DNA of 64,000 nucleotides from a bacterium (GCA_031362565.1 JANLSU010000070.1:32001-96000); one strand, 5' to 3'. Shown: positions 35,009-57,100, numbered from the stretch's first letter. Notes: generated by a model from the sequence alone, not told the origin. Numbers and translations are program-made.

Positions 35009-35084
35009 GCGCCTCCACGCGAGCGCCCGTGGGACGCCGCTCGGGAGTCATGCGCAAGAACTACGCCGTGGAGGCAGGCGCCGC

Positions 35085-35489
35085 CTATTCCGGACGGTAG
35101 GTGGCGCAGCAGGCGGGTGTTTCCCAAAAATCGACGGCGACGACCGGCAGATCCGCGGCGCGGGCCTGGTCGTACACGAGCCGCGCCAAATTCTCGGCGG
35201 TGGGATTGCAGTCCAGAACAACGACGGGCTCACCGAGCGCCCGCAGCGTGGCCAGCGCCGGATCGTTTTCGTGCAGGATCATCCGGTGGTCCCACGCCTC
35301 ATCCAGCCACCGGCCGAGCCGGTCCCGGAGTTCGAGAAAGTCGACGACCATGCCTTGGGCATCGAGGTCCGGCGCCTCGAGGTGCAGCACGACGCGCGCA
35401 TTGTGGCCGTGCAACTGCGCGCACTTGCCCACATAGTCGATCAAACGGTGCCCGTAGCAGAATCCGAGCTCGCGTGCGATCCGGTACAT
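35085..35489 (-). CDS. queD: 6-carboxy-5,6,7,8-tetrahydropterin synthase (QueD/PTPS)
   Basis: GHRL, CAQLHGHN, GMVVDF, WDH, NPTAENLA, WET. Confidence 0.9.
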   Translation of the reverse strand: MYRIARELGFCYGHRLIDYVGKCAQLHGHNARVVLHLEAPDLDAQGMVVDFLELRDRLGRWLDEAWDHRMILHENDPALATLRALGEPVVVLDCNPTAENLARLVYDQARAADLPVVAVDFWETPACCATYRPE

Positions 35490-35741
35490 GCCGCCTCCTC
35501 GAGCCGACAGTGTAGCAGGGGCACGCGGCCTCCAGGGCGGCACGCGCGCCCGTTGGGCGGAGCATTTTCCGGCGTGTGGAAAAAAGGCCCGCGCCCGGCA
35601 CACCTCGGTGCGGCGGCCACGGTCGAGGCAAGGCAGGGATTCGCGGCCGGCGTTTTTTCTGGCCGACCCCCTTGGGAATTCGCACCCCCGTCAGGTATGC
35701 TCCCACTCGTTGCCTTCAGCCCAATCCGGACGCGGAGAAGC

Positions 35742-39601: not shown

Positions 39602-41373
39602 CCGGGCACGCCACACACAGGGCCTGGGTGCGAGCCGCGTGTCTCGGGTTGGCGCTGGCGCTTGGCGGTTGCGGTCCGCATCCGCGTCTCGCACTCGATC
39701 CCGTGCCGCTGCAAGACGATGATCGGTACGATATTCCGGAACCACCGGCCCTCGTTCGCGATGACTACTACGATCTGGTCGACTACACGTTCTTCAAGCA
39801 AATCGAGCAAGCCGCCGATCTGCCACGCAATCTGCGCCGGCTCGCGGGTAAGCCCAAACAAGCCGACAACGTCACGCCGCTCGACGAGATCCAGGATTCC
39901 TCGTGGTTCACCAATCGGATGGGGCGCCGGAAGCTCACCCCACCGGAGATCGCACAGGGCGGCAACCGGCCCGAAGGCCCCGACATGGCGCACCACTGGA
40001 CGATCGTGTCCGGCAAAGCAACCGGGGTCACCCCTGGGTTCACGATTCAAGACGCGAGCGGCGCGCGTTACGTCATCAAGCCGGATCCGATGGATTTCCC
40101 CGAGCTGGCGACCGGCGCCGATATGATCGCGACGCGCCTCTTCTGGGCCGCCGGTTACAACGTCACCGAGGACTATCTGGTACGCGTGCACCCCGAACAG
40201 CTCGACATCGGGCCCAAAGCGTCCGTGAAACTCCAACTCGGCAAGAAGCGGCCCTTCACCGCCGCCGATCTCGACCGCATCCTGCAGCATTGTCCGCGCG
40301 AACCCGATGGCAGCATCCGGGTCCTGGCAAGCCGCTTCCTTGCCGGTAAGATCGTCGGCTCGATTCCATTTCTCGGCGTGCGGAAGGGTGACCCGAACGA
40401 TGTCATCCGGCACGAACACCGGCGCGAGCTGCGTGGCTACAAGGTGTTCTGCGCCTGGCTCAATCATAATGATTCACGCGAGATCAACTCGCTCGACAGC
40501 TATGTGAACGAGGACGGCCGCCACTTCGTGAAGCACTACGTACAGGATCTGAATGCGACTCTGGGCAGTGCCAGCATCTACCCCAATCTGCGCAGTGAAG
40601 GCTACGAATACATCGTCGACTTCGGTGAAATGGGCAAGTCACTCGCAACGCTGGGCCTGTACGAGCGGCCGTGGACGAAGCTCGAGTTCCCGGTGCTGCG
40701 CGGCGTCGGCAAGTTCGAGGCGGCGCATTTCGAACCGTTCAGCTGGAAGCCGAATTATCCCTGCCCGCCGTTCGAGAACATGACGTCGCGCGATGCGTTC
40801 TGGGCCGCCAAGATCATCATGCGCTTCGACGATGCACTGCTCGAGACCGCCGTCAGTACCGCCGAGTACAGTGATCCCGCGGCGCGCGCTTACATGGTCA
40901 AGACTCTGGGTGCGCGGCGCGACCGCATCGGACGTTTCTGGTTCGGACGGGTGAATCCGCTCGACGACTTCGAGATTGTCGAAGCACCGTCGGCCGCCGG
41001 CGGCGCCGGCCTTCTGGGCAAGGTCCTGTCGGGCGCGACCGGCGCCCGGAGCGCCGCACCACGTTCCCTGCGCTTCACCGACCTGGCGTTGATCCATGGC
41101 TTCGTGCCGCCCCGCCGCTACGAAGTGCTCGCCATCGGCCCGCACGGCAAGCGGCTCGGCATGATCGTGACCGATTCGAACGCCGTCGCGATCGATGCGT
41201 GGATCCAAGCCCTCGGCACGCCGGCCGCGGACGATGTCAACGGACGCCTCGTGCGGCTGTCGATTCGTTCGAGCCTGCCCGACTTGCCGACCTGGACTCC
41301 CAAGGTCGACGTGACGCTGTACCTGCAGCCTTCGGGAGCGGTGCGCGTCGCGGCCATCGAACGCGACGAGTGA
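39598..41373 (+). CDS. lipoprotein with putative atypical kinase-like fold
   Basis: Lipobox LALGGC; GKATGVTPGF..., YVIKPD...E, WLNHNDSREINSLD, VQDLNATLGS. Confidence 0.65.
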   Translation: MTGHATHRAWVRAACLGLALALGGCGPHPRLALDPVPLQDDDRYDIPEPPALVRDDYYDLVDYTFFKQIEQAADLPRNLRRLAGKPKQADNVTPLDEIQDSSWFTNRMGRRKLTPPEIAQGGNRPEGPDMAHHWTIVSGKATGVTPGFTIQDASGARYVIKPDPMDFPELATGADMIATRLFWAAGYNVTEDYLVRVHPEQLDIGPKASVKLQLGKKRPFTAADLDRILQHCPREPDGSIRVLASRFLAGKIVGSIPFLGVRKGDPNDVIRHEHRRELRGYKVFCAWLNHNDSREINSLDSYVNEDGRHFVKHYVQDLNATLGSASIYPNLRSEGYEYIVDFGEMGKSLATLGLYERPWTKLEFPVLRGVGKFEAAHFEPFSWKPNYPCPPFENMTSRDAFWAAKIIMRFDDALLETAVSTAEYSDPAARAYMVKTLGARRDRIGRFWFGRVNPLDDFEIVEAPSAAGGAGLLGKVLSGATGARSAAPRSLRFTDLALIHGFVPPRRYEVLAIGPHGKRLGMIVTDSNAVAIDAWIQALGTPAADDVNGRLVRLSIRSSLPDLPTWTPKVDVTLYLQPSGAVRVAAIERDE

Positions 41374-44300
41374 TGCGCCTCGAGGCACGGACGCGGGCCG
41401 TGGTTTTCGGGTGCTTTTTCCTCTCCGGTGCTACGGGGCTCGCCTATCAAGCCATCTGGTTCCGGCATCTCCAAGCCTTGTTCGGCGTCACCACCCAAGC
41501 GCTCGCGGTCGTGGTCGCGGCCTTCATGGGTGGACTGGCGGCTGGAGCCTGGGTGTTCGGCGGCATTGCCGATCGCAGCAAGCATCCGCTGCGGTTGTAC
41601 GGCTGGCTCGAAATCGGCGTCGCCATTCTGGCGCCGCTCGTCGCTCCGCTCCTCACGGGCATCGAGCGCATCTATGTCGCCCTGCACCCGAGCTTGGCAG
41701 AGGCACCCGTTGCGCTCGCCGCGCTGCGGCTCGGGCTCGCACTCGTCGCACTCTTGGGGCCGACGCTCTTGATGGGCGGCACGCTGCCGGCACTGACGGT
41801 GCTCCTGCGGCGCGAGTCGCCGCCTTCGACATCGCTGCACCGCGATTTGGCGCGTTTGTACGGTCTCAACACGTTGGGTGCGGTGGCAGGCACGGCGTTG
41901 GTGGGCTTCGTCCTGCTCTCGGCGGTCGGATTGCGCCGCACGACGCTCATCGCGGCGGCCGCCAATCTCGTCCTCGGAGCCTTGTGCGTGTGGCGTGGCA
42001 GCAAGGTGTCGCCGCCCGTTGCGGTCGCCGCACCAGCGGGTTCGCTGCCCGGTGCCGGCGCGAGCGCCCTCTCTGCCGGCGAACCGCCACTCGTGCTGCG
42101 GCGTTTCGCGATCATCGCCTTCGCGGTCTCGGGTGGCCTGTCGCTCGTCTACGAAGTCGCGTGGACACGCGTGCTGACGCAAATCGTCGGCAGCTCGACC
42201 TACGCTTTCAGTCTCATCCTGACGGCTTTCCTGCTGGGCTTGGGACTTGGAAGTCTGGCGATCGGTGGGTGGCGCGGCCGCGATCGCGCCGGGTTGGCTG
42301 GATTCTGCGCCGCCGAGCTCGGTATTGGCGCGACTGCCGCCGCCGTCGTGCCGCTCTTCGTTCGGCTCCCGGATCTGCTGCTGCAGGGTTTAGGTAGTGT
42401 GCAGTCGATCCCAGGCGTGCTCGGACTGCAATTCGCGCTCTGTCTCGGCATCGTGCTCCTGCCGACACTCTGCATGGGCGCGACTTTGCCGCTCGTCGCC
42501 GGATTCGTTGCGGCGGGGCGCCAAGACGTCGGCCACGCCGTCGGCCGCTTGTACGCCGGCAACACCGTCGGCGGCATTGTGGGTTCGATCTTGGCGGGGT
42601 TTGTGTTGATCCCCCACCTCGGCTCGCAGCGCACCCTCGATTTGGCGCTCCTCGGCAACGCCGCAATCGCCGCGTCGGGCTTGGTGCTCCTGGTCCGATT
42701 CGGGCGCCAGACTTCGGCACCGGCGCCCGCGTGGCGTGAACGCCTCACGCCTGCACGCGTGGCGATGGCGACAGTGGCCGTTGGCCTGCTGGTCGTCGGA
42801 CTCGCAACTCCCGCCTGGGACCCCTATGTGCTCGACGCCGGCATTGCGATCGGCGGCCCGCCACTGGCGCGCAGTGATGCCGGGGCGACGGCGCGCGACA
42901 TCGCGCGCGGCTCCGACATGCTGTTCTATCGCGAAGGCCGCAATGCCAACATCTCGGTGCGCAAGGACGAGACCCAGTTCTACTTGAAGACGAATGGCAA
43001 GACGGACGGTACGACACGTGGCGACATGCCGACCCAGCTCATGCTGGGCCTGCTGCCGACGCTCGTGCACCCGGCGCCGGTTCGGACTCTCGTCGTCGGG
43101 CTCGGTACCGGTGCCAGTGCGCGCGCCGCGGCGCGGGCTCCCAGCGTCGAGCGGCTCGACGTCGTCGAAATCGAGCCGGCGGTCGTCGAGGCGTCGCAGA
43201 GGTACTTTGGCGAAGTGAACTCCGGCTTGTTCGAGGACGCGCGGGTGCATGTGGTCGTGGACGATGCGCGCGCCTTCCTGCGCACGACGCGCGAGCGCTA
43301 CGACATCGTGGTCTCCGAGCCGTCCAACCCGTGGATCGCCGGCATCGCCAACCTCTTCAGCGTCGACCACTACGAACGCTGCGCCGCACGCATGGCGCCG
43401 GACGGCATCATCACGCAGTGGCTGCAGACCTACGCCATGCGCCCCGAACTCGTGCGCATGGTGCTCGGGTCGATGCAGCAGGTGTTCCCGCACCTGCAAG
43501 TGTGGAGTTTCCACTACGGCGACCTCATCGTGCTCGGGAGCCGCACGCCGTTTGCGCCGTTCGATGTCGCCCGCACCGACGCACGGCTCCACGAGTGGGG
43601 GCTCGAGGCCCAAGTCCACGACGTGCTCGGCGTCCATTCAGCGGCCGGGTTGCTGGGCTTCTTCGCCCTCGGCGAGGGCGACATCGCGCCTCTGGTGGCA
43701 GGCACAGAACTCAATACCGAGGACCGGCCGCGGCTCGAGTTCGCCGCGCCGCGCAGTTTGTATTTGTCGACGCGCGACGCGAATGCCGCCCTCTTGGCGC
43801 GGGCGCGCCGGACGCCTTTGCCGCCGCTCGCCGTGACCACCCTGCGCGGCGCCGAGTGGTTGGATGTCGGACGGGCCGCACTCGCGACGCGCCGCACCGA
43901 TGAGGCTGCCTTTTGGCTCGGGCGGGCGCGCGCCATTGATTCGCTGCCGGCGGGTGCGGCGGAACTCTTGGCCGGGCGGATCGCCATGACGCGCGGTGCG
44001 ACGGCCGCGGCACAGCAGGAATACACGGCCGCGGTGCGGCTTGCCCCCGAAGGGCTCGAACCCGTACAGGAATTGTCGCGCCTCTACTTCATGCAAGGCC
44101 AGCCGGTTGCTAGCGAGTGGCTCGACCGCGCCGGTGCGCCGCGCGCCCTCCTGCAGCGCGACACGGCAGATCTCGCGTTGCAGCTTCTCGAAGCGGCGTT
44201 CGAACGCGGCTCGACCGACAGCGCGTCGAGACTCGTCGCGGCACTCTTTGTGGCAGCCGAGAACCCCGGTGCGGCACCGGGGCTCGATGCCGCATTGCGT

Positions 44301-44645
44301 GCCCGCCTCACGGCCCTCGTCGCCCGCGCCGCACTCGCCCATCGCGATCCGGCGACGGCGGCGGCCCGGGCGCGAGACGCCCTCGCGATCAACGCGCAGT
44401 GCACCGCAGCCTGGCGAGTGCTTGCGGAATTGGAATACCAGGCACAACGTTACCCGGAAGCAATCACCTGGTGGGAACGCCTGGTCGACTTCCGGCAGAC
44501 GGGCCCCGAGGTGCTCGTACCGTTGGCGCGCGCCTACCGGCAAGTGGGCCGATTGCACGATGCGCGGCGTGTCGTCCGCCGGGCGCTCGCCCAGGATCCG
44601 CGTCAACCGGACTTGCTGCGGTTACGCGACGAACTCGGCACCTGA
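41373..44645 (+). CDS. fused multi-TM / spermidine synthase-like protein with C-terminal TPRs
   Basis: FFLSGATGLAYQ, LYGLNTLGAVAG, LVVGLGTG, VEIEP, DDARAFL, YDIVVSEPSNPW, NTEDRPRLEF, TPRs. Confidence 0.88.
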   Translation: MRLEARTRAVVFGCFFLSGATGLAYQAIWFRHLQALFGVTTQALAVVVAAFMGGLAAGAWVFGGIADRSKHPLRLYGWLEIGVAILAPLVAPLLTGIERIYVALHPSLAEAPVALAALRLGLALVALLGPTLLMGGTLPALTVLLRRESPPSTSLHRDLARLYGLNTLGAVAGTALVGFVLLSAVGLRRTTLIAAAANLVLGALCVWRGSKVSPPVAVAAPAGSLPGAGASALSAGEPPLVLRRFAIIAFAVSGGLSLVYEVAWTRVLTQIVGSSTYAFSLILTAFLLGLGLGSLAIGGWRGRDRAGLAGFCAAELGIGATAAAVVPLFVRLPDLLLQGLGSVQSIPGVLGLQFALCLGIVLLPTLCMGATLPLVAGFVAAGRQDVGHAVGRLYAGNTVGGIVGSILAGFVLIPHLGSQRTLDLALLGNAAIAASGLVLLVRFGRQTSAPAPAWRERLTPARVAMATVAVGLLVVGLATPAWDPYVLDAGIAIGGPPLARSDAGATARDIARGSDMLFYREGRNANISVRKDETQFYLKTNGKTDGTTRGDMPTQLMLGLLPTLVHPAPVRTLVVGLGTGASARAAARAPSVERLDVVEIEPAVVEASQRYFGEVNSGLFEDARVHVVVDDARAFLRTTRERYDIVVSEPSNPWIAGIANLFSVDHYERCAARMAPDGIITQWLQTYAMRPELVRMVLGSMQQVFPHLQVWSFHYGDLIVLGSRTPFAPFDVARTDARLHEWGLEAQVHDVLGVHSAAGLLGFFALGEGDIAPLVAGTELNTEDRPRLEFAAPRSLYLSTRDANAALLARARRTPLPPLAVTTLRGAEWLDVGRAALATRRTDEAAFWLGRARAIDSLPAGAAELLAGRIAMTRGATAAAQQEYTAAVRLAPEGLEPVQELSRLYFMQGQPVASEWLDRAGAPRALLQRDTADLALQLLEAAFERGSTDSASRLVAALFVAAENPGAAPGLDAALRARLTALVARAALAHRDPATAAARARDALAINAQCTAAWRVLAELEYQAQRYPEAITWWERLVDFRQTGPEVLVPLARAYRQVGRLHDARRVVRRALAQDPRQPDLLRLRDELGT

Positions 44646-44650
44646 TTCGG

Positions 44651-45775
44651 ATGAAAGCTTTGCGCTCGATTCTTGCCAAAATTGCCCTGGCGCTCGGCAG
44701 CGCACTCGCGACACTCGTCGCGGTGGACTTGGTGCTGCTGCTCGTCCAAGGTCCGGTGCGCGTGGTCGAGGACTTCTATGAACCGGCGCCGGACTACGCC
44801 TACAAGATGCAGCCCAACCTGACGTTCGAGTTCGCGAATCCGTACCACGGCTATCGTGGCACCGTGCACACCAACGCCTTGGGATTGCGCGGCGGTCCGG
44901 TCGTGGTTCCGAAGCCGCCCGGTGTGGCGCGGATTCTTTTCATCGGTGATTCGATGACCGCCGGCCTGGAAGTGAACGAGAACGACACCTTCGAGGCGGT
45001 CTGTAGCCGGCTCTTGGGCGGGGCGCCGCACATCGACGTCGTGAACGCCGGCGTCCGCGGTTACAACCTCGACAACGTCCTGGCTTTCCTGCAGAACGTT
45101 GGCATCGGCCTCGAGCCGGACCTCGTCGTCTACACCTTCGTCGACAACGATTTGACCGCGAACGCGGACTTCAGTCCGGAGACGAGCGATTGGTCGCGCG
45201 GGTTGACCCTGTCGGGACTCGCCGGGCGGATCGCGGCCTACTCACACCTGACGTACCGATTCCAGTTGCTGCAACAGCAGATCACGTTGCGCCGCCAGAC
45301 CGACAACAAGCAGAACGAACGCGTTTATGTGCCGCGCGGTCTCTACGCGCTCTTCACGACCACGACATACTTGACCGACGCGTCGGCGGTCTTGACCGGC
45401 CAGCGCATCGCTTACATGGATTCGCTGTGCCGCGTGCACGGGGCGCGCTTCGTCCTCGCCGGCGCGCCGCACCGGCTGGAGATTTCGCCGCCGGCTCAGG
45501 ACTGGCTGCGCCAACAACTGCTGAAATCGACCGCCGCCGACGCCGCAGCCGCACCGGACTTCGACGGCGTGCGCCGTTACCTCGATTGGGTCGCCGAGCG
45601 CGCCGGCTGTGCGCGCGTCGACCCCATCCCCGCCTTCCGCGCCGGGTTGCCGCAGGCTCGCGACTACTGGTTCCACAAGGACGATCACTTGAACGTGCGG
45701 GGCCACCGGCTGTTCGGCGAGATCATGGCGGAAAAGTTGCGGCCGCTCTTGCCGGCCGGATCCGCGCCGCGCTAG
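44651..45775 (+). CDS. SGNH/GDSL-family (AlgX/AlgJ-like) membrane-anchored acyl esterase or transferase
   Basis: TNALGLRG, IGDSMT, NAGVRGY, ND, DDHLNVRGH. Confidence 0.85.
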   Translation: MKALRSILAKIALALGSALATLVAVDLVLLLVQGPVRVVEDFYEPAPDYAYKMQPNLTFEFANPYHGYRGTVHTNALGLRGGPVVVPKPPGVARILFIGDSMTAGLEVNENDTFEAVCSRLLGGAPHIDVVNAGVRGYNLDNVLAFLQNVGIGLEPDLVVYTFVDNDLTANADFSPETSDWSRGLTLSGLAGRIAAYSHLTYRFQLLQQQITLRRQTDNKQNERVYVPRGLYALFTTTTYLTDASAVLTGQRIAYMDSLCRVHGARFVLAGAPHRLEISPPAQDWLRQQLLKSTAADAAAAPDFDGVRRYLDWVAERAGCARVDPIPAFRAGLPQARDYWFHKDDHLNVRGHRLFGEIMAEKLRPLLPAGSAPR

Positions 45776-46275
45776 GCAGCCGGCGACTTGGCTTTGTATT
45801 CGGGGATCGGCGTGAAGTTGGTAACGGCGGTGTCGAGCGGCGGCGAGTAGACGTGCACGGTGACGAGCCCCGCGTCCCCGACGTTGACGATGCGATGCAC
45901 GTCCTTGGGCGCGGCGATCGTGATCCCACCGCGGGTGTATTCGCGCGCCGTGGTCCGGCAGGGCTTGCCGGCGGCGTCCAATTCGAACATTTCTTCCTGC
46001 ATGACGCCGTCGACGACGATGTACAGGCAATTGCTGCGGCCGTGGTCGTGGATCGAACTGGCCTGTTTGGCGAGCCAACAAATGACGACCAGCTCGAAGT
46101 GGTCGTTCTTGAACACCGTATTGCGGGCGTAACGCGTCTCACAAAATTCCTTGTGAGACTCGAGATCGAGCCCGGCGATGTCAACGGCGTGCGCAAAGGC
46201 AAGCATTTCGTCGCGATCGAGCGCCCGCGTGGCCGCGGGCGAGGCGAGAAGTCGATCGCGAAGAACGTTTGCCAT
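45772..46275 (-). CDS. cysteine dioxygenase type I family cupin
   Basis: YARN, ICW...SSIHDHGRSNC, VHRI, VTVHVYSPP. Confidence 0.85.
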   Translation of the reverse strand: MANVLRDRLLASPAATRALDRDEMLAFAHAVDIAGLDLESHKEFCETRYARNTVFKNDHFELVVICWLAKQASSIHDHGRSNCLYIVVDGVMQEEMFELDAAGKPCRTTAREYTRGGITIAAPKDVHRIVNVGDAGLVTVHVYSPPLDTAVTNFTPIPEYKAKSPAA

Positions 46276-46543
46276 GTCCCCAGACTACACCCGGCCCCCG
46301 GGGGCGGCGCAAATGTTTCCTGCAGTCGCCGCGGCGCGAGCCGCGGCACCGCGCTTGCAGTGTCACCGGACAGGGCGAAAGCGATGCGGGACGCCCGGGC
46401 TGGGCGTGCCGGTGCCGACTCCCCGCGACCGGTCCGCCTGAGTTTTCGCCCGTGGCCGGTCCGGAATCGGCCATGCCGTCCGGCGGCGCGGCGGCACGGA
46501 TCGAAGCGCCCCCGCCCCTGGAATGCTGCCTGGAGGAATCGCG

Positions 46544-47554
46544 GTGCCTGAGGTGTTGGGACTGGGTGTGATCGGGCTGGGCCGCATCGGGCGCTTGCAC
46601 GCCGAGAATGCGGCACGCCTGGCGGAAGCCCGCCTCGTCGCCCTCGCCGACCCGTGCGTCGAGCGCGCCCACGAGGCGGCAGCGGCCTGCGGCGCGGGCC
46701 GCGTGTTCGACGACCCCACCGCACTCCTCGCCGACCCCGGCGTCCACGCCGTACTCATCTGCTCGTCGACCGATACGCATGCCGGGTTCCTGGAGCAAGC
46801 CGCCGCGGCCGGCAAGCACATCTTCTGCGAAAAACCCCTGGATCTCGATCCCGAACGGATTCGGAGCGCACTCGCGGCGGTCGAACGGGCCGGCGTGCTG
46901 CTGCAAGTCGGCTTCAACCGCCGCTTCGACCCGGGCTTCCGGCGCATCGCCGCCGGCGTCCAACGCGGCGAGGTCGGGCGCCCCGAGTTCGTTCGCATCA
47001 CGAGCCGCGACCCTGCCCCGCCACCACTCGATTACGTGCGCGTCTCGGGTGGGATCTTTCTCGACATGACGATTCACGATTTCGACCTGGCGCGCTATCT
47101 CATGGCCGATGAAGTCGTCGAAGTGCAGGCCATGGGTGCAGCGCTCGTCGATCCCGCCATTGGCGCCGCCGGCGATGTCGACACCGCGGCCGTGCTCTTG
47201 CGCTTTGCGGGCGGCGCGCTCGGCTGCATCGACAACTCGCGCCGCGCGGTCTACGGCTACGACCAGCGCGCCGAAGTCCTCGGATCGGCAGGCTGCTTGA
47301 GCGCCGCCAACGTGACCCCGGACCGTGTCAGCCGCTGGGATGTAAACGGCCAAACCGCCGCCAAACCCTTGCACTTCTTCTTGGAGCGCTACGGCGCGGC
47401 CTATGTCGACGAGCTACAGGCCTTCGTCGATTGCGTGCGCGGCCGGCGGCCGCCGCCCGTCAGCGGCCACGATGGATTGCAAGCGACACGCATCGCGCTC
47501 GCGGCGCGGCGCTCGCTTGCCGAACGGCGCCCCGTCGCAGTCGAGGTCGGCTGA
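46544..47554 (+). CDS. iolG: myo-inositol 2-dehydrogenase
   Basis: GLGRIG, CEKP, GFNRRFD, SRDP, SGGIFLDMTIHDFD, YGYDQRAEV, FFLERY. Confidence 0.92.
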   Translation: MPEVLGLGVIGLGRIGRLHAENAARLAEARLVALADPCVERAHEAAAACGAGRVFDDPTALLADPGVHAVLICSSTDTHAGFLEQAAAAGKHIFCEKPLDLDPERIRSALAAVERAGVLLQVGFNRRFDPGFRRIAAGVQRGEVGRPEFVRITSRDPAPPPLDYVRVSGGIFLDMTIHDFDLARYLMADEVVEVQAMGAALVDPAIGAAGDVDTAAVLLRFAGGALGCIDNSRRAVYGYDQRAEVLGSAGCLSAANVTPDRVSRWDVNGQTAAKPLHFFLERYGAAYVDELQAFVDCVRGRRPPPVSGHDGLQATRIALAARRSLAERRPVAVEVG

Positions 47555-48381
47555 TGCTATCGCCCGTCGTGAATGCGTTTCGCGCCGGCTTCGACCGCGG
47601 CCGCACGGTCATCGTTCGTGAAAGCGATGCGGGGCCGCTCGCACCGGGGCTCGATTTCGATGTGGTCGTGCAACACCGCGGTGACGCGACCGATGCAACG
47701 GACGCCAAGGAATCGGCTTGGGTGCTCCTTGCCGGGCGCGCCGCAGTGACATTCGATGCCGCATCGCACGTTGTCGAGCGCGATTCCCTCTTCGATGCCG
47801 CACCCGCGGTCCTGCATCTCGCGGCCGGCTCGGCTGCCAAGCTGGTGGCGCACTCCGATCGCGTCGAATGGGCGGTCGTGCGGGCCACGAATGCGCGCCG
47901 CTTTGCGCCCCGCCTGTTCACGGCCGCCGATGTGACGGCCGAGCGCCGCGGCGCGGGGCTCGCGCAGGGTGCCTGCGTCCGCACCGTGCGCCTCGTCTTC
48001 GATCGCACCACAAGGCCCGAATCGGCAATCGTCCTCGGCGAAGTCGTGGGCGATGCCGGACGCTGGTCGAGCTATCCGCCGCATCATCATGCGCAGCCGG
48101 AGCTGTATCACTACCGGTTTTCGGCACCGCAGGGCTGGGGACACGCCGAATTGGGCGACGCCGTTTTCAGAGTGCAAAGCGGTGACACGCTCTGCATTCC
48201 ACCGCACGCGACGCATGCGCAGGTTGCCGCCGCGGGTTATGCGATGTGGTACCTCTGGGCGGTGCGCCACGTGCCGGGTGCCCCGTACGAGGGCTTCACC
48301 TACGACCCCCAGCACACCTGGTTGCTCGATCCGGCCTCGCAAGGCTGGGCGCCCGGCGTGGACGCTGGAGGCCGCTCATGA
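47554..48381 (+). CDS. iolB: 5-deoxy-glucuronate isomerase
   Basis: LGEVV...WSSYPPHHH.QPELYHYRF; MWYLW; iol gene context. Confidence 0.85.
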   Translation: MLSPVVNAFRAGFDRGRTVIVRESDAGPLAPGLDFDVVVQHRGDATDATDAKESAWVLLAGRAAVTFDAASHVVERDSLFDAAPAVLHLAAGSAAKLVAHSDRVEWAVVRATNARRFAPRLFTAADVTAERRGAGLAQGACVRTVRLVFDRTTRPESAIVLGEVVGDAGRWSSYPPHHHAQPELYHYRFSAPQGWGHAELGDAVFRVQSGDTLCIPPHATHAQVAAAGYAMWYLWAVRHVPGAPYEGFTYDPQHTWLLDPASQGWAPGVDAGGRS

Positions 48382-50234
48382 GCACCGTGCGCCTGACCGT
48401 CGCCCAAGCGCTCGTCGATTTTCTCGCCCAGCAGTACATGGCGCGCGACGGCGCCGAGCATCGCATCATCCACGGCTTCGCAGGCATCTTTGGACATGGC
48501 AACGTGACCGGCATCGGCCAAGCGATCGAGGAGCGCTCGAGCCTGCCCTTCTATCAGCCCAAGAACGAGCAAGCGATGGTGCACATGGCGGTGGCGTTCG
48601 CCAAGGCACGCGCTCGGCTCGGCACGCTCGCCTGCACGACATCGGTCGGACCCGGGGCGACGAATCTCGTCACTGGTGCCGCGGGCGCGACCATCAACCG
48701 TCTGCCGGTTCTACTCTTGCCGGGCGACGTGTTCGCGAGCCGCCTCCCCGATCCGGTGTTGCAGCAGCTCGAGCATCCGCAGTCGCTCGACACGAGCGTC
48801 AACGATTGCCTGCGGCCGGTGTCGCGCCGCTTCGATCGCATCATGCGGCCCGAGCAATTGCTGCGGGCGCTGCCGGAAGCGATGCGCGTCCTGGCATCGC
48901 CGGTCGAAACGGGTGCCGTGACGATCTGCTTGCCCGAGGATGTGCAAACCGAAGCCTACGACTGGCCGGTCGAGTTCTTCGCGAAAAGGGTGTATGCAGT
49001 GCTGCGGCCGCGCCCGGACACCAACGAACTCCAAACCGCAGTTGCGCTCCTGAAAAACTCGCGGCGGCCGTTTCTCATTGCCGGTGGCGGCGTGCACTAC
49101 GCCGGCGCCACCAACGCGCTTGCCGCGTTCGTGGAACGCACCGGGATTCCCGCCGGCGTGACGCAAGCCGGCAAGGGTGCATTGCTCGATGCGCACCCGT
49201 TCTGTCTCGGAGCCGTCGGCGTGACCGGCACCGCGGCCGCGAATCGTATCGCGGCGGAGGCCGATGTCGTCGTCGCGATCGGCACCCGCTTGGCGGATTT
49301 CACGACCGCCTCGAAGACGCTCTTCCAGCATCCGAACGTGCGCTTCGTGAATATCCAAATCGATCCCTATGACGCGCACAAACAGGGCGCGTTGCCGCTT
49401 CTGGCCGACGCCCGGGCGGGGCTCGAGGATCTGGGCGCGGCACTCGGCGGCTATTCGACGTCGAGCCCGTACCGGCGCGAAATCACCGAAGCACAATCGG
49501 CGTGGGCCCTCATGCGGGACGAGATCGTGCATCGCACCCACGGCGACACCGGTGCACTGCACCAAGCGGCGGTGCTCGCACTCCTGAACGAGCATGTCGG
49601 CCCGCGCGCCACGGTCGTGCATGCCGCCGGCGGCCTGCCGGGAGACCTGCACAAGCTCTGGCGCTCCGAGTCGGCAGCGCAGTTGCACTCCGAGTACGGT
49701 TACTCGTGCATGGGCTATGAGATCGCGGGAGCGCTCGGCGTCAAACTGGCGGATCCCGAGCGCGCCGTGTATGCATTCGTGGGTGACGGCAGTTACCTCA
49801 TGCTGCACACGGAAATCGTCACCGCGCTGCAAGAAGGACTCAAGATCACCATCGTCCTCGTCGACAACGGCGGCTACCAGTGCATTCATGGGTTGCAGCG
49901 CAGCACCGGTGGGCGGAGCTTCGGCAATGAGTTCCGCACCCGCACCGGTGGCCGCCTCGCCGGATCCCCGGTGCCGGTGGACTACGCCGCGAATGCCCGC
50001 AGCTTGGGGGCCGCGGCGTGGCACGCCCGAACCGCGGCCGAACTGCGCGCAGCACTCGCGGCAGCCGGCGCCGAGCCACGGACCTGTCTCATTCATGTGC
50101 CGGTCGAGCCCCGCCCGGTGCCGTCCTTCGCCTGGTGGGACGTCCCATCCGCCGAGGTCTCCGACATCCCGTCCGTACGAGACGCACGCCGGCGTTACGA
50201 CGCGGCGCGGGTCGCGCAACGGTTCTACTACTGA
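48378..50234 (+). CDS. iolD: 3D-(3,5/4)-trihydroxycyclohexane-1,2-dione acylhydrolase (ThDP-dependent)
   Basis: RLTVAQAL, IFGHGNV, NEQAM, SVGPGATN, EYGYSCMGYE, GDGSYLM. Confidence 0.95.
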   Translation: MSTVRLTVAQALVDFLAQQYMARDGAEHRIIHGFAGIFGHGNVTGIGQAIEERSSLPFYQPKNEQAMVHMAVAFAKARARLGTLACTTSVGPGATNLVTGAAGATINRLPVLLLPGDVFASRLPDPVLQQLEHPQSLDTSVNDCLRPVSRRFDRIMRPEQLLRALPEAMRVLASPVETGAVTICLPEDVQTEAYDWPVEFFAKRVYAVLRPRPDTNELQTAVALLKNSRRPFLIAGGGVHYAGATNALAAFVERTGIPAGVTQAGKGALLDAHPFCLGAVGVTGTAAANRIAAEADVVVAIGTRLADFTTASKTLFQHPNVRFVNIQIDPYDAHKQGALPLLADARAGLEDLGAALGGYSTSSPYRREITEAQSAWALMRDEIVHRTHGDTGALHQAAVLALLNEHVGPRATVVHAAGGLPGDLHKLWRSESAAQLHSEYGYSCMGYEIAGALGVKLADPERAVYAFVGDGSYLMLHTEIVTALQEGLKITIVLVDNGGYQCIHGLQRSTGGRSFGNEFRTRTGGRLAGSPVPVDYAANARSLGAAAWHARTAAELRAALAAAGAEPRTCLIHVPVEPRPVPSFAWWDVPSAEVSDIPSVRDARRRYDAARVAQRFYY

Positions 50235-50248
50235 ACGGAGTTGACGCG

Positions 50249-51172
50249 ATGACTGCATTCGAGCGCCAAGCCCCCTTCCTGAGCGATTGGGCGCCACGGG
50301 TCGGCATCAACCCGATCGTGTGGACCAATGACGACTTCCACGACTTAGGGAACGCCACGTCGCTCGATCGTTGCTTGTCGGAAACGCGTGCCGCCGGCTT
50401 CGCGGGCACCGAACTCGGGCGCAAGTTTCCACGCCAGCCGGAAGCGCTCCGCAGCGCACTCGCGGCGCACGGCCTGGTGCTCGTCTCGGGATGGCATAGC
50501 CTCAACGTGTTGGAGCAGGACATCGAGACCGTGTGGCAGGGCCTTCGAACCCATCTCGAACTGCTCTCGGCACTCGGAACCGACGTTGCGATCGTCGCCG
50601 AATGCACCCGCCGCAGCTACGCCGATCCGCAGGCACCGCTGCGCTTCGTACGCAATGGCGACGCGCTCGCGTCCGCCGAGTGGGATCGTTTGACCACGGG
50701 TCTCGACCACTTGGCGGCCCGCGCCGCCGAACACGGTATGCGCTTGGCCTACCATCACCACATGGGTACGGTCGTGCAAACAGCCGGCGAGGTCGACCGG
50801 CTGATGGCGGAAACTCGCGATCTCGGTTTGCTCGTCGATACCGGGCATCTGGCTTTCGCCGGCGCCGATCCGCTCGCCATGCTCGAACGTCACGCGCCGC
50901 GCGTCGTTCACGTCCACCTCAAGAATGTGCGGCCGGACGTGGTCCAGAGCGCCCGCCAAAGCGCCTGGAGTTTTTCGCAGGCGGTCCGCGCCGGTGTGTT
51001 CACGGTGCCGGGTGACGGCGGCATCGATTTCGCGCCCATCCTCGCCCGCCTGCGCCAAGCGCGGTACCGGGGCTGGCTGGTGGTCGAAGCCGAACAGGAT
51101 CCGAGCCTCGCGCCACCCTTCCAGTACGCGGCGCGGGCCCGCGACTACGTTCGCAAAGTGGCGGGTGTGTGA
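50249..51172 (+). CDS. iolE: myo-inosose-2 dehydratase
   Basis: GINPIVWTNDD, GTELG, YHHHMGT, DTGH, HVHLK, FTVPGDG, VEAEQDP. Confidence 0.93.
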   Translation: MTAFERQAPFLSDWAPRVGINPIVWTNDDFHDLGNATSLDRCLSETRAAGFAGTELGRKFPRQPEALRSALAAHGLVLVSGWHSLNVLEQDIETVWQGLRTHLELLSALGTDVAIVAECTRRSYADPQAPLRFVRNGDALASAEWDRLTTGLDHLAARAAEHGMRLAYHHHMGTVVQTAGEVDRLMAETRDLGLLVDTGHLAFAGADPLAMLERHAPRVVHVHLKNVRPDVVQSARQSAWSFSQAVRAGVFTVPGDGGIDFAPILARLRQARYRGWLVVEAEQDPSLAPPFQYAARARDYVRKVAGV

Positions 51173-52251
51173 TGGCGAAGCAGCCGCACGCGGTGACGTC
51201 CAAGATGCAAGCGACGCTGGCATTGGGCGCGTCGTTCTGGAACGACTCGTGTGATTTGCGCGAATTGCGCCACGCCGTCGACGCGGGGGCACGCGGCGCG
51301 ACATCGAACCCGGTCATTGTCGCCGAAGCGGTGAGCGCCGATCCCGCGACCTGGCTGCCGGTTGTCGACGCCTTGCTCCGCGACCACCCCACTGGGCGCG
51401 AAGACGAAATCGCTTGGCGGCTGGTCGGGGCAATGGGGCGTGAGGCAGCAGCGATTCTGGCGCCCGTGCACGCCCGCACCGGCGGCGAGCACGGCTGGTT
51501 GTGCGTGCAAACGGATCCACGGCTCTTCCGCGACGCCGAACGCATGTGCGCGCATGGACGCGAAATCGCCGCGCTGGCAGCCAACGTCGCGGTCAAGGTG
51601 CCGGCCACGGCCGCCGGCCTGCAGGCCATCGAGACGCTGACCAGCGAAGGCATCCGCATCAATGCCACGGTCAGTTTCAGTGTGTCACAAGCCCTGGCAT
51701 GCGCGGCGGCCGTCGAACGTGGGCTCGCCGCGGCCGAACGCACCGGGCGCGGCGACGCCGCAACCATCCAGCCCTGGGTGACACTCATGGTGGGACGTCT
51801 CGATGATCACTTGCGGCGTGTGATGGAGCGCGAACGTGTCACCGTAGAGCCGGGATTCCTCGACTGGGCGGGCATCGCCGTCTTCAAAAAGGCCGCCGCA
51901 CTGTTCCGCGCCCGCGGCTATCGCAGCACGCTTCTCGCCGCCGCGTACCGGCACTGCATGCATTGGACGGAACTCGTCGGTCCGGGTGTCGTCCTGTCGA
52001 TGCCGTACCGATTCTGGACCCAGTTCGATGCCTCGGACTTGGTGCCGCGCGTCGCACTCGCGGATCCGGTCGAGCCGCGCGTCGTCGCGACGCTTCTGGC
52101 GCTGTTCCCCGATTTCGCCCGCGCCATGGACGAAGAGGGTTTGTCGCCGGCCGAATTCGAGACCTTCGGCCCCTCGATCCACACTCTGCAGCAATTTCAC
52201 GCCAGCTTCGACCGCCTGGTCGGGATCGTCCGCGGCCGCCTGTTGCGCTAG
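51172..52251 (+). CDS. transaldolase-family protein (atypical active site)
   Basis: WNDS, GATSNPVI, Schiff-base VKVPAT, GIRINATVSFS, MVGRLDD. Confidence 0.88.
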   Translation: MAKQPHAVTSKMQATLALGASFWNDSCDLRELRHAVDAGARGATSNPVIVAEAVSADPATWLPVVDALLRDHPTGREDEIAWRLVGAMGREAAAILAPVHARTGGEHGWLCVQTDPRLFRDAERMCAHGREIAALAANVAVKVPATAAGLQAIETLTSEGIRINATVSFSVSQALACAAAVERGLAAAERTGRGDAATIQPWVTLMVGRLDDHLRRVMERERVTVEPGFLDWAGIAVFKKAAALFRARGYRSTLLAAAYRHCMHWTELVGPGVVLSMPYRFWTQFDASDLVPRVALADPVEPRVVATLLALFPDFARAMDEEGLSPAEFETFGPSIHTLQQFHASFDRLVGIVRGRLLR

Positions 52252-52455
52252 CACCGATTCATCTCGCAGCGTGATCCCGAATCGTCCTTCAGTGCCGATC
52301 CTGGGACGCTTTGGGTCCTTTGCCGCTTTCCCGCTCGGATGTATGTCGAATGCGTCACTCGCGATTCATGCTGGCGTCATGCTCTTGGCGCAACAATGAC
52401 CACAACGAAAGACGCCCCACAGTGCGCCAACATCTATTTGATGGGGAGAGACATC

Positions 52456-53307
52456 ATGAATCGTACGCTAGCGATCGCATTATCCGTAGTCGTCACCAGC
52501 ACATTCGGTGCATCTCAATCGCCGCGCGGGATCAGCCGCTGGTTGCCCGCAATGCCGCCGGCCGCCGCCGATGTGCTGGTGGGAATGAACGACGTGGAAC
52601 ATCCACACGACGGCACTGCGAATGAACTCGTGCAGGTCGACCTCACGACCGGCGTGGCGACAAACCTGCACGTTTTCGCGGCGGCACTGAACGACATGGA
52701 GGCGCTCTGCTACGACGCGCGCAACGCCGTACTGTGGGCCACCAACGGCGGTGTCCTGGTACGAATCAACACCACGACCTTCGACGCGGTGACCATCGGC
52801 GACACCGGTTTGGGTGACATCGACGGTTTATCGATTCAGCCAGGCACCGGCACGCTCTTCGGGATCACGTACGGCGGCAACGATTTGTTCACTATCGACA
52901 AACAGACCGGCGCCGTGACGATGATCAACGGTCACATCGAGGAGGGCTCGCGCCCCGAGGATCTCGCCTTCGATTCGACCGGCCGGCTGTACGCCCTCAC
53001 GTCCAGTAGCCTGGTCGAGTTGCGGCCGAGCGACGGAGTCCGGATTTCGAAGGTCGCGCTATCGGGTGCCTCGAGCCTCGAGTCGCTCGTGTGGTGGAAC
53101 GAGGGTGGCACTTTCCTGACCGCCGGGGATCGCGGGACAACCAAGGACCTCGCGCGCCTCGACCGGACAACCGGCGTCGCGACTTTCGTCGGCGCCGTGC
53201 ACTCCGGCAAAGTCGACATCGAGGCGCTCGCCTTCTTGCCGCAAACCCCGCCGGTCCTCGCGGTCCAAGAACGGACGTGGGGAGCCACCAAGGCGTTGTA
53301 CCAGTGA
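52456..53307 (+). CDS. secreted beta-propeller-like protein with WxxxKxxYQ tail
   Basis: GGGGAG RBS; signal peptide; repeats (LAFD..G.LY, LFTIDKQTGAVT); ends VQERTWGATKALYQ. Confidence 0.75.
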   Translation: MNRTLAIALSVVVTSTFGASQSPRGISRWLPAMPPAAADVLVGMNDVEHPHDGTANELVQVDLTTGVATNLHVFAAALNDMEALCYDARNAVLWATNGGVLVRINTTTFDAVTIGDTGLGDIDGLSIQPGTGTLFGITYGGNDLFTIDKQTGAVTMINGHIEEGSRPEDLAFDSTGRLYALTSSSLVELRPSDGVRISKVALSGASSLESLVWWNEGGTFLTAGDRGTTKDLARLDRTTGVATFVGAVHSGKVDIEALAFLPQTPPVLAVQERTWGATKALYQ

Positions 53308-55003: not shown

Positions 55004-56923
55004 TCACGCCTTGACGGTGCGCGGGCGCGCGGCGAGCGCCAGGAACAAGCAAACGACCGCAATGAGTGCCAGCGTAACGAGCTTGCCGGCGGTACCGGAT
55101 ACGAGCGGGTCGTGGGTTTTGGGAATCGCGCCGAAGCCCACGAGGGCGGCCACGAGGACGCCCGCCAGTCCCTCGCCGGCGACCAAGCCCGAGGCCGCCA
55201 ACACGCCGGCGTCGCCGCCGGACTGCGCGGCGCGCTCGCCGCGCGAACGTTCGACGCGGGCCCGCACACAGCCGCCGACGAAAATCGGCAGCATCGAAGA
55301 GAGCGGCAAATACACCCCGATCGCGAACGCCAGGCCCGAAACCCCGCAGAGCATCGCGGCGCCCGAAACGCCGGCACCGCTCAGCACGAGCCCCCAAGGG
55401 AGATCGCCCGAGAGCACACCCTCGATGATGGTCTTCATGAGGGTGGCTTGCGGCGCCGCCAGTTCCGCCGAACCAAACTCGTAGGTGCGGCCGAGCAGCA
55501 ACACCGTGCCGGCCACCGCCCAGCAGGCGAACGAAGCGCCGATGAGCTGCCCGAGCTGCTGTTTGGCCGGCGTCGCGCCGACCAAGAAGCCGGTCTTGAG
55601 ATCCTGTGAAATGTCGCCGGCCTTGGAAGCGGCGATGGCGACAATGGTGCCGACGGTGAGCACCGCGGCGCGCGCATTCGCATCCCGCCATCCGAGGGCC
55701 GCGAACACCGCCGCGACACCGAGCAGCGTCACGAGGGTGATTCCCGAAGTCGGTTGCGAGGAAACGCCGACGATTCCGACGATACGCGCCGCAACCGCCA
55801 CGAAAAGAATACCGAACAGGCCGACGCCAGCCGCACACACGAGCCGCGCCCCGAGCCCCATGTGACCGGCGAAGACACCGGGCACGAGCGCCGAGACCAC
55901 AATCACCGCGACGACGGCGCCAATGACGAAGCGGCCGGAAAGATCGCGATCGGCATCCGGATTGAGCACCGCCCCCGCCGGGGACTCGCCGCCGCCCGCA
56001 TCGGGCCCGGCCGTTCGCCGTTCGGCTCGCAAGCCACGCGCCACGGCGCGAAAGGCGCCGAACATCGTCGGGAAATTGCGCACCACGGTCACAATGCCGG
56101 CGGTCGCAACCGCGCCCGCGCCCACAAAACGCACGTAGCGCGACCAAATCTGCCCCGACGTCATGTCGCCGACGAGTTTCTGTGTTTCGGGCAAAAGCGG
56201 TGTCGTGAGACTGACGCCGATGAATGCAATGAGCGGCGTCAGTGCAAACGCTGAAACGACAGATCCCGCGACAATGACCGCCGACTGGCGGTAGCCGAGG
56301 ATGTAGCCGATCGCCAGCAATGCCGGTGCGAGTTCGATCGCGATTTCGGCTTTCGGCAAGAACGGCACTGCACCGGCGACGATGCCGGGCGAGAGAAAGA
56401 GCACGGCGATCAAGACCTTCACGCCGGCGCCGACGGCCATGCCGCGGAAAATCCAGACGCCGCCCGAGGCATCGGTGGTCGTGGCGCGCAACACTTCGGC
56501 GCACGCCGTGCCCTCGGGGTACGGCAGCTCCTTCGCGCCTTGGACGATCAACAAACGCCGCAACGGGATCATCGCCGCGAGCCCGAGCACGCCGCCCAGG
56601 AACGCCAGCACGACGACCTGCCAATAGGGCGGCGCCATGCCCCACAGGAAAAGCGCCGGAATGGTGAAGATGGTGCCGGAGGTGAGCGACGTCGAGGCCG
56701 AACCGATCGTCTGCGCCAAGTTGGCTTCGAGAATCGTACCGCGCAGCCGGAAGACCTTGAAGACCGCGACCGCCATGACGGCCGCCGGAATCGACGCCGA
56801 CACCGTCATGCCGACGCGCAGGCCCAAGTAGGCATTTGCGGCCCCGAACACCAGCCCCAAGACAATGCCGGTGACGACCGCCTTGAAGGTGAACTCGGCA
56901 ATGCCCTCGCGCGCGAACGCCAC
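55004..56923 (-). CDS. OPT-family oligopeptide transporter
   Basis: ANAYLGLRVGMTVSASIPAAV, LPYPEGTACAEVL, QDLKTG.LVGATP, APQATLM. Confidence 0.93.
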   Translation of the reverse strand: MAFAREGIAEFTFKAVVTGIVLGLVFGAANAYLGLRVGMTVSASIPAAVMAVAVFKVFRLRGTILEANLAQTIGSASTSLTSGTIFTIPALFLWGMAPPYWQVVVLAFLGGVLGLAAMIPLRRLLIVQGAKELPYPEGTACAEVLRATTTDASGGVWIFRGMAVGAGVKVLIAVLFLSPGIVAGAVPFLPKAEIAIELAPALLAIGYILGYRQSAVIVAGSVVSAFALTPLIAFIGVSLTTPLLPETQKLVGDMTSGQIWSRYVRFVGAGAVATAGIVTVVRNFPTMFGAFRAVARGLRAERRTAGPDAGGGESPAGAVLNPDADRDLSGRFVIGAVVAVIVVSALVPGVFAGHMGLGARLVCAAGVGLFGILFVAVAARIVGIVGVSSQPTSGITLVTLLGVAAVFAALGWRDANARAAVLTVGTIVAIAASKAGDISQDLKTGFLVGATPAKQQLGQLIGASFACWAVAGTVLLLGRTYEFGSAELAAPQATLMKTIIEGVLSGDLPWGLVLSGAGVSGAAMLCGVSGLAFAIGVYLPLSSMLPIFVGGCVRARVERSRGERAAQSGGDAGVLAASGLVAGEGLAGVLVAALVGFGAIPKTHDPLVSGTAGKLVTLALIAVVCLFLALAARPRTVKA

Positions 56924-57100
56924 GCAACAACCCCCTTTTGGAAGGCCGCACTGTAGCACTTCCGGCGCCCGGCGCGGTGGAGCGGTACCCGCCCGCTCGG
57001 CACAACTCTCCGGCTTGCGCGCACGCCTTCGACGGAGCAGAATTCCGGCACCTGTCCGCTGCGCATCAGGCCCCCGGCCTTCTGTGGAGGGCGATGTCGA

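Follow-up and report, generated by a model that had tools for sequence, protein, structure and literature searches.

Positions 46523 to 52251 of the 64,000-nucleotide stretch of bacterial DNA analyzed here (JANLSU010000070.1:32001-96000 of assembly GCA_031362565.1; referred to as the window) carry five tightly coupled open reading frames (ORFs), iolG-iolB-iolD-iolE-tal, on the plus strand. We conclude that these genes probably constitute a single myo-inositol catabolism operon in which the steps catalyzed by IolC and IolJ are replaced by one lysine/Schiff-base enzyme, the tal product, belonging to the transaldolase/fructose-6-phosphate aldolase (TAL/FSA) superfamily. In the established pathway, IolB produces 5-dehydro-2-deoxy-D-gluconate (DKG), IolC phosphorylates the C6 hydroxyl of DKG, and IolJ, a homologue of class II fructose-bisphosphate (FBP) aldolases, cleaves the C3-C4 bond, leading to the formation of dihydroxyacetone phosphate and malonate semialdehyde. 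The original prediction, made from the DNA of the window alone, proposed that tal provides a kinase-free, transaldolase-type ending of this pathway, and the analyses reported below support this interpretation at the computational level.

The coordinates of the five genes (Table 1) and the sequences of their junctions bore out the tight coupling that had been predicted. The iolG/iolB and iolE/tal junctions are formed by TGATG overlaps, the iolB/iolD junction is formed by an ATGA overlap, and a gap of 14 nucleotides separates iolD from iolE. The third-position G+C content of the five frames (0.75 to 0.82) reveals a strong bias, the G+C content of the window being ~0.62 to 0.71. Translation of iolG may start at ATG 46523 or, more likely, at GTG 46544, located 6 nucleotides behind a GGAGGA sequence. 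The start of tal is ATG 51172, with GTG 51169 as an alternative. Scanning positions 45700 to 52700 for promoters and terminators yielded one promoter-like and three terminator-like sites, which is not above the level obtained with shuffled sequences. A search of sequencing runs listed no RNA run containing this DNA, the only run that does being of DNA and perhaps from the source sample. Family scans also confirmed that the window encodes no IolC, class II aldolase, or IolA.

Table 1. Coordinates of the iol-tal genes, of selected tal codons, and of other features discussed in the text (positions refer to the window unless a locus is named)
Feature	Position	Strand	Evidence or description
iolG, inositol 2-dehydrogenase	46523..47554	+	TIGR04380, 448 bits (cut-off 355); GFO_IDH_MocA domains
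iolB-type 5-deoxy-glucuronate isomerase, divergent	47554..48381	+	Pfam KduI/IolB, 170 bits; TIGR04378, 99 bits (below cut-off 205)
iolD, thiamine diphosphate-dependent ring-opening hydrolase	48378..50234	+	TIGR04377, 876 bits (cut-off 715)
iolE, inosose dehydratase	50249..51172	+	TIGR04379, 364 bits (cut-off 290)
tal, divergent TAL/FSA-family gene (P0001, 359 aa)	51172..52251	+	PF00923, 149 bits
tal codon Q113	51508..51510	+	In CVQTD
tal codon K142	51595..51597	+	In VAVKVPAT; predicted Schiff-base lysine
tal codon M206	51787..51789	+	In TLMVGR
737-aa protein	35007-37220		Three S1 RNA-binding stretches
Radical SAM protein	37288-38253		
Omp85-family protein	38267-39601		
1148-aa ORF	41199-44645	+	Spermine/spermidine-synthase domain (residues 614-767) and C-terminal TPR repeats
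OPT oligopeptide transporter	55004-56959	-	
PfkB-like gene, Neomarinimicrobiota cluster	L018:5961-6854	+	297 aa; weak PfkB match (40 bits)
Divergent iolB, Neomarinimicrobiota cluster	L018:11104-11871		
Cgl0159-like gene, acidobacterial iolC-type cluster	L111:6240-7289		PF22649
Cgl0159-like gene, acidobacterial iolC-type cluster	L112:7325-8302		PF22649
Short TAL/FSA-type protein, host contig C117	L006:1471-2655	-	Start probably MKMFLDS, ~215 aa
Third TAL paralogue, host contig C12	L008:1273-2631	+	452 aa; PF00923, 119 bits; TIGR00874, 61 bits (cut-off 396)

The assembly of the host genome (5.4 Mb in 133 contigs; 100% complete with 1.85% contamination) was searched with family profiles. As for the canonical iol pathway of Bacillus subtilis and Salmonella enterica, this genome encodes IolG, IolE, and IolD proteins scoring over their cut-offs, an IolB-family protein, and an IolA, a methylmalonate-semialdehyde dehydrogenase (MMSDH) scoring over the cut-off (589 bits), whose gene is located on another contig (C76) and is not linked to the operon. 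The intermediates leading to DKG are expected to be identical in the two systems, as is the end product, malonate semialdehyde. The two systems differ in the connecting steps, since IolC was not found in the host genome (63 bits for the best PfkB match to TIGR04382, against a cut-off of 300) and whole-genome searches detected no DUF2090 protein, no class II aldolase (PF01116) that could stand for IolJ, and no Cgl0159-type aldolase (PF22649), tal being instead translationally coupled to iolE. The absence of iolC, of IolJ-type aldolases, and of DUF2090 had been predicted, and the refuting case named with the prediction, an intact iolC together with an aldolase gene elsewhere, is not that of the host. 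A search for class I FBP aldolase (PF00274) gave no match in the host genome, nor did it in any control genome. iolD is present in a single copy. Two further TAL-family genes were identified, indicating that the iol-linked gene is not the only TAL-family member of the genome. According to the available text of a survey of iol clusters (PMC9430895), iolC is a core gene and the lack of a core gene is ascribed to incomplete or faulty assemblies, no replacement being described in that text.

Of the two additional TAL-family proteins of the host, the short one encoded on contig C117, the presumed housekeeping transaldolase, displays GPVSAPV at the position of FsaA Q59 and TalB E96 in the alignment, i.e., a Pro in place of the catalytic Glu or Gln. 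The paralogue encoded on contig C12 retains the TalB-type Glu (VSVEEH) and Phe (VFLGR), contains a long C-terminal extension, and could be the real pentose-phosphate transaldolase of the lineage.

Profile, fold, and Schiff-base machinery place the Tal protein in the TAL/FSA superfamily. The PF00923 match (cut-off of 27 bits) covers residues 23 to 292 and assigns the protein to this superfamily of class I aldolase TIM barrels. The AlphaFold2 model of Tal (pLDDT, 94.7; pTM, 0.91) had only transaldolases among its top Foldseek matches, with template modeling (TM) scores of 0.79 to 0.80 and 22 to 27% identity, the best being the transaldolase of Neisseria gonorrhoeae (TM, 0.79). By curated scores or signature residues, Tal nonetheless lies outside the classical transaldolase, FSA, and SqvA families, since all curated NCBIfam transaldolase/FSA models scored below their cut-offs (NF002881, the best, 112 versus 367 bits; TIGR00876, 65 versus 234; TIGR00874, 37 versus 396; TIGR00875, 62 versus 246). 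Relatives of the protein number in the thousands (6172 of 8000 scored candidates at E <= 0.001). Among the 120 relatives listed, identity ranged from 53 to 92%, and the proteins, where named, were designated only "transaldolase" or "transaldolase family protein"; named carriers include the cultured Hyalangium gracile, Hyalangium versicolor, and a Stigmatella sp. With a profile built from an alignment of 29 members (A1), members of the clade scored 420 to 610 bits, the short TAL of the host 30 bits, and the nearest solved protein, the N. gonorrhoeae transaldolase, 106 bits, the clade being delimited by these gaps in profile score only. One database protein (P0122; 655 residues, a one-member cluster on a 5.5-kb contig) fuses IolE to TAL. 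Besides this fusion, the search for longer forms returned one unrelated 634-residue protein. A TAL-IolB form (P0168) is possibly a gene-calling artefact.

Members of the clade were aligned with Escherichia coli TalB and FsaA, the TalB numbering being checked against the sequence and the titles of Protein Data Bank (PDB) entries. The predicted Schiff-base lysine, K142, corresponds to TalB K132 and is a Lys in 80 of 80 related loci. Also kept were D25 and N46 (TalB D17 and N35; 79 of 79 loci each, one locus being gapped), N164 and T166 (N154 and T156; 80 of 80 loci each), and R209 and R260 (R181 and R228). Other positions are changed. Q113, in CVQTD, occupies the position of TalB E96 and FsaA Q59 and is a Gln in all 80 loci; M206, in TLMVGR, occupies that of TalB F178 and FsaA Y131, at which Phe or Tyr distinguishes transaldolases from FSAs, and is invariant in alignment A1; T204-L-M206 stands for S176-P-F178 of TalB; and A258 stands for S226, this Ser-to-Ala replacement being constant in the 80 loci. 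Residues located outside the search patterns used to collect the loci, including Q113 and K142, were constant wherever the column was covered. The alignment thus bore out the remodeled active site that had been proposed from three motifs read by eye. All three motifs, CVQTD, TLMVGR, and AAYR, are real, but AAYR does not extend to the entire clade: Y259 gives way to Phe in 58 of 80 loci (AAFR, compare with ASFR in TalB), and only the Ser-to-Ala change is constant.

TalB residues R181, S226, and R228 are presumed here to bind phosphate. On this assumption, the anion site appears largely retained and could hold the carboxylate of DKG or malonate semialdehyde as well as the phosphate of glyceraldehyde 3-phosphate or fructose 6-phosphate. 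The usual acid/base residue of both enzyme types is missing, as the clade contains neither the transaldolase Glu nor the FSA Tyr, Tyr131, which we take to be the acid/base residue of FSA on the strength of the titles of the TalB F178Y and E96Q/F178Y entries. The closest solved structures, the long transaldolases of N. gonorrhoeae (3clm, 7bbx, and 7oey) and Corynebacterium glutamicum (3r5e), match the model over its whole length (profile scores of 94 to 106 bits) and share with Tal the Lys, Asp, and Asn residues as well as the Arg of the [ST]xxxxR motif. Beyond the low identity, they differ by the Glu of the N. gonorrhoeae enzyme (E93, by the title of 7oey), which is Gln here, by FF(I)SR, which is LMVGR here, and by the N. 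gonorrhoeae loop STGVKNP preceding AY, which is missing here according to the HMMER alignment. E. coli FsaA (1l6w) resembles Tal by the Gln at the transaldolase Glu position (Q59 for Q113) and acts on an unphosphorylated dihydroxyacetone unit, but differs by the residue at the Tyr131 position, which is Met here, by its size (220 versus 359 residues), and by a profile match of 38 bits.

Gene neighborhoods provided information on the role of the clade. Scanning one genome per species revealed more than 595 places encoding a relative, of which the 80 best were retained together with at most 10 kb of sequence on each side. The queries of the tblastn searches of these loci were the Iol proteins of the window, a second Iol set from the Solibacter locus L024, one IolA, and one IolC of acidobacterial origin. 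For loci of very high G+C content, such as L009, the assessment relied on tblastn only. iolB was found near tal in 46 of the 80 loci, and in 31 of the 44 loci having at least 8 kb of sequence on both sides (well-flanked loci). The corresponding numbers were 40 and 28 for iolD, 32 and 24 for iolE, 29 and 23 for iolG, and 19 and 12 for iolA. iolC was present within 10 kb of tal in 0 of 80 loci and 0 of 44 well-flanked loci. This linkage of the clade to iol genes is far above chance, since the background rate of iolD was 7 of 208, 23 of 301, and 12 of 401 genomes in three phylum samples versus 28 of 44 clade loci. According to record titles, the iolD-linked loci belong to at least eight phyla (Myxococcota, Acidobacteriota, Chloroflexota, Dormibacterota, Actinomycetota, Bacteroidota, Spirochaetota, and Neomarinimicrobiota). 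The expectation that the clade would accompany iolB, iolD, and iolE in many phyla was therefore verified, and in none of the 80 loci did it do so together with iolC.

Annotation of individual clusters led to the same picture. The Chloroflexota locus L028 encodes LacI, IolG, IolE, an ABC transporter, IolA, TAL, IolD, and IolB; the Bacteroidota locus L043 encodes TAL, a Na+/solute symporter, IolB, IolD, IolA, IolE, and IolG; and the Spirochaetota locus L075 encodes LacI, IolG, IolD, IolE, TAL, an ABC transporter, IolA, and IolB. No kinase and no other aldolase were found in these three clusters, which are among five loci that were fully annotated. In the other two, from Solibacter (L024) and Neomarinimicrobiota (L018), reduced versions of the same gene set were present. 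The aldehyde dehydrogenases of the annotated clusters are MMSDHs (557 to 601 bits for a cut-off of 448.5).

Two features of these clusters may be recorded separately. The divergent IolB accompanies the TAL subclade of the window and of L018 (TIGR04378, 99 versus 205 bits; Pfam, 154 to 170 bits), and a second TAL subclade, comprising the Solibacter, Bacteroidota, and Chloroflexota types with AAFRN, accompanies a canonical IolB (Pfam, 256 to 346 bits). The PfkB-like gene of L018, for which no NCBIfam match was obtained at E <= 1e-10, immediately precedes iolD-iolE-TAL-iolB and follows genes for a Na+/solute symporter and a metallo-beta-lactamase-fold protein; none of the other 79 loci contains a counterpart.

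The distribution of the clade was compared with that of iolC at the genome level. In the window's own phylum, iolD was detected in 7 of 208 genomes, namely, the host, 5 of the 6 other members of the host's family, and one additional genome. The clade was found just downstream of iolD in 5 of 5 tested iolD-positive genomes, one match being cut by a contig end and one genome (G052) being left out. Among 301 Acidobacteriota genomes, 23 were iolD positive: 5 contained the clade (including the seed, G014), 7 contained an iolC over the cut-off, none contained both, and 11 contained neither. Among 401 Bacteroidota genomes, the 12 iolD-positive ones comprised 1 with the clade (the seed, G040) and 11 with iolC over the cut-off, with 0 in the two other categories. 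The predicted anti-correlation was thus observed, with no overlap among the 35 iolD-positive genomes of the two phyla (6 with the clade, 18 with iolC, 0 with both, and 11 with neither). PF22649 was detected in none of 31 carriers (the host genome, 4 relatives, 22 genomes with iolD adjoining tal, and 4 Acidobacteriota) versus 8 of 14 iolC carriers, in which it was always beside iolC or iolD. By comparative genomics, the clade takes the place of IolC and IolJ.

Additional observations were made on the acidobacterial genomes of the other two categories. Four loci from genomes with neither gene were viewed (L103, L105, L106, and L107, from G499, G472, G388, and G481, respectively). iolD was accompanied by iolE in 3 of the 4 and by genes for GFO-type oxidoreductases in 2 of the 4; the presence of a more distant TAL was ruled out in these four loci, which contain neither TAL nor iolB. 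The iolD scores across the 11 genomes ranged from 756 to 911 bits, and the neighbors included BNR/sialidase-like, PhyH, and TonB-type genes. Since iolB and TAL are missing, these loci look like a different pathway, which may use the ring-opening step of IolD. The acidobacterial clusters of the iolC type (L111 and L112) encode IolB, IolC, a Cgl0159-like aldolase, and IolD, followed in L111 by an ABC transporter, IolG, and IolE. The Cgl0159-like gene located between iolC and iolD (PF22649, 230 to 243 bits; no NCBIfam model at E <= 1e-10) presumably encodes the aldolase partner of IolC.

A substrate, a cleavage site, and an acceptor can be proposed from the chemistry of the pathway. When numbered from its C6 end, DKG is a 2-ketose that has the D-threo configuration of fructose at C3/C4, a free CH2OH at ketose C1, and an anionic far end, i.e., a donor of the kind that transaldolases accept. 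This fructose-like configuration explains why IolJ, an FBP aldolase homologue, cleaves DKG phosphate. Together with the precedent of sulfofructose transaldolase (sulfo-TAL), it leads us to consider it likely that the clade performs the DKG-cleaving step in place of IolC plus IolJ. Judging from family assignments, IolG, IolE, IolD, and IolB would convert inositol to DKG. K142 would then form an imine with the keto group at C5 of unphosphorylated DKG, followed by scission between C3 and C4 and departure of malonate semialdehyde, which would be oxidized by the unlinked IolA/MmsA. That IolA is retained suggests malonate semialdehyde as a product, and the strongest individual argument for cleavage of DKG is that iolB and iolA, on either side of the missing pair of steps, have been kept.

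The enzyme-bound dihydroxyacetone unit would most likely be passed to glyceraldehyde 3-phosphate, yielding fructose 6-phosphate, as in the reaction of sulfo-TAL. We tentatively propose, at somewhat less than even confidence, that the clade is a true DKG:glyceraldehyde-3-phosphate transaldolase forming malonate semialdehyde and fructose 6-phosphate. The enzyme could instead act as an aldolase, cleaving DKG in the manner of FSA, with protonation of the bound enamine and release of free dihydroxyacetone, which would be phosphorylated by glycerol kinase or a DhaK or reduced to glycerol. We regard this mode as rather unlikely, even though Q113 matches Gln59 of FsaA and not the transaldolase Glu, glycerol kinase is encoded by the host genome (605 bits, over the cut-off), and a reaction needing no co-substrate would suit a stand-alone operon. 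The position of the FSA Tyr131 is occupied by Met in all members, and the protein belongs to the long type of transaldolases (~350 residues versus ~220 for E. coli FsaA). Moreover, the dihydroxyacetone kinase Dak1 was not found in the host genome and was encoded by only 16 of 50 carrier genomes (absent from 34), and no dihydroxyacetone or glycerol gene was found in the five annotated clusters. The original prediction that no ATP is spent stands for the DKG cleavage step taken alone but not for the overall pathway. Fructose 6-phosphate requires phosphofructokinase and dihydroxyacetone requires a kinase, so that neither route saves ATP overall, phosphorylation being shifted to phosphofructokinase or a triose kinase.

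The precedent of sulfo-TAL is one of pathway logic only. According to the part of the report consulted (PMC12890257), SqvA forms a Schiff base with unphosphorylated sulfofructose, releases sulfolactaldehyde, and transfers dihydroxyacetone to glyceraldehyde 3-phosphate to give fructose 6-phosphate. As proposed for Tal, the 6-deoxy-6-sulfofructose transaldolases (SqvA/SftT) of Bacillus megaterium and Bacillus aryabhattai (8bc3 and 8c4i) replace a kinase and aldolase pair by a Schiff-base TAL-family enzyme acting on an unphosphorylated, anionic fructose analogue. However, SqvA belongs to another branch of the superfamily, is short (226 residues), and is matched by the clade profile (8bc3) with 50 bits over 77 residues only. 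The distal group of its substrate is a sulfonate, in contrast to the carboxylate proposed here. The neighbors of tal, whether in the window or in the five annotated loci, are iol genes rather than the genes for the SqvD isomerase and sulfolactaldehyde enzymes that surround sqvA. Full-text literature searches, which did not cover subscription journals, retrieved no paper linking a transaldolase with DKG, iolB/iolD, or inositol catabolism.

Several observations weigh against the assignment of DKG cleavage to the clade. Because both known acid/base solutions are missing, neither the transaldolase nor the aldolase activity can be read from the sequence, and the enzyme could do something else. The constancy of M206 and of the TxMVGRxDD motif across the 80 loci is partly by construction, since the search patterns contained them. 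The operon of the window lacks genes for a transporter and a regulator as well as iolA, and the score of its IolB remains below the curated NCBIfam cut-off, being significant at the Pfam level only. After exclusion of seven short loci (<=5.3 kb) from the 80, the genomes of the first 50 of the 73 remaining loci were searched, and IolC was over the cut-off in 1 of them (G007, in which tal does not adjoin iol genes); PfkB matches of 198 to 255 bits were obtained for three more and of at most 148 bits for the rest. Most of the genomes sampled are metagenome assembled and of unknown completeness, those of relatives do not count as independent, and the two samples from outside the window's phylum were each centered on a carrier. 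Finally, the host genome encodes other PfkB kinases and two DeoC/LacD-family aldolases, the latter located away from any PfkB match. Together with glycerol kinase, these may leave room for a non-orthologous kinase and aldolase or for a route through free dihydroxyacetone.

Some of these points would fit a different role in the inositol regulon, in which the clade acts on another substrate or step, such as a ketose derived from another inositol isomer or derivative, or the rebalancing of sugar phosphates, DKG being handled by an unrecognized, non-orthologous kinase and aldolase encoded elsewhere. Besides the kinases, the aldolases, and the divergent IolB just mentioned, this explanation would account for the 10 of 44 well-flanked loci with none of iolB, iolD, iolE, and iolG within 10 kb, for the PfkB-like gene of L018, and for the 11 of 23 iolD-positive Acidobacteriota with neither iolC nor the clade, which indicate that the lack of iolC alone does not demand this enzyme. 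We consider it improbable, since no kinase or aldolase recurs (0 of 80 loci with an iolC-like match, the PfkB of L018 being confined to that locus), clade and iolC carriers are disjoint among the 35 iolD-positive genomes, the clusters retain iolB and iolA, the steps flanking the missing pair, and the loci with neither gene also lack iolB and look like a different pathway. It is far less probable still that tal is an ordinary pentose-phosphate transaldolase placed by chance at the end of the operon. The Pfam TAL_FSA match, the conservation of the Schiff-base Lys and of most catalytic residues, and the designation "transaldolase" in public records would agree with such an assignment. Against it stand the score on the best curated transaldolase model, the replacement of the catalytic Glu in 80 of 80 relatives, the presence of two other TAL-family genes in the genome, and the recurrence of the iol linkage in at least eight phyla.

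Plants supply bacteria with myo-inositol, a major carbon source that originates largely from phytate. Its breakdown is regarded as an invariant pathway of seven enzymes, for which iolC serves as a core marker. The new element is probably a TAL-family clade that replaces two enzymes of this otherwise known pathway by acting on a new substrate. If so, predictions of inositol use that require iolC would overlook or wrongly score many Acidobacteriota, Chloroflexota, Myxococcota, Dormibacterota, Spirochaetota, Bacteroidota, and marine SAR406-type bacteria, and thousands of related "transaldolase family proteins" would gain a specific function. The TAL superfamily would gain a new substrate class, carboxylated ketoses, and an unusual acid/base arrangement of interest for biocatalytic C-C bond formation. 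Should the enzyme operate by transfer to glyceraldehyde 3-phosphate, the textbook pathway would have an "inositol-TAL" ending in soil, sediment, marine, and gut-type lineages of at least eight phyla. This would be the second natural case, after sulfo-TAL, of a transaldolase replacing a kinase and aldolase pair, and the Gln/Met site devoid of the transaldolase Glu and FSA Tyr would be a third catalytic solution in the superfamily. The cultured Hyalangium and Stigmatella carriers make the idea directly testable.

The genes flanking the operon are unrelated to inositol. Among them are genes for the spermine-synthase/TPR protein, a GDSL-type esterase, a DUF4394-like protein, a putative glycosyltransferase, and the OPT transporter. 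The 1148-residue ORF for the spermine-synthase/TPR protein lies just upstream of the esterase ORF and the iol operon, and genes for an S1-domain protein, a radical SAM protein, and an Omp85-family protein are located farther upstream in the window (Table 1).

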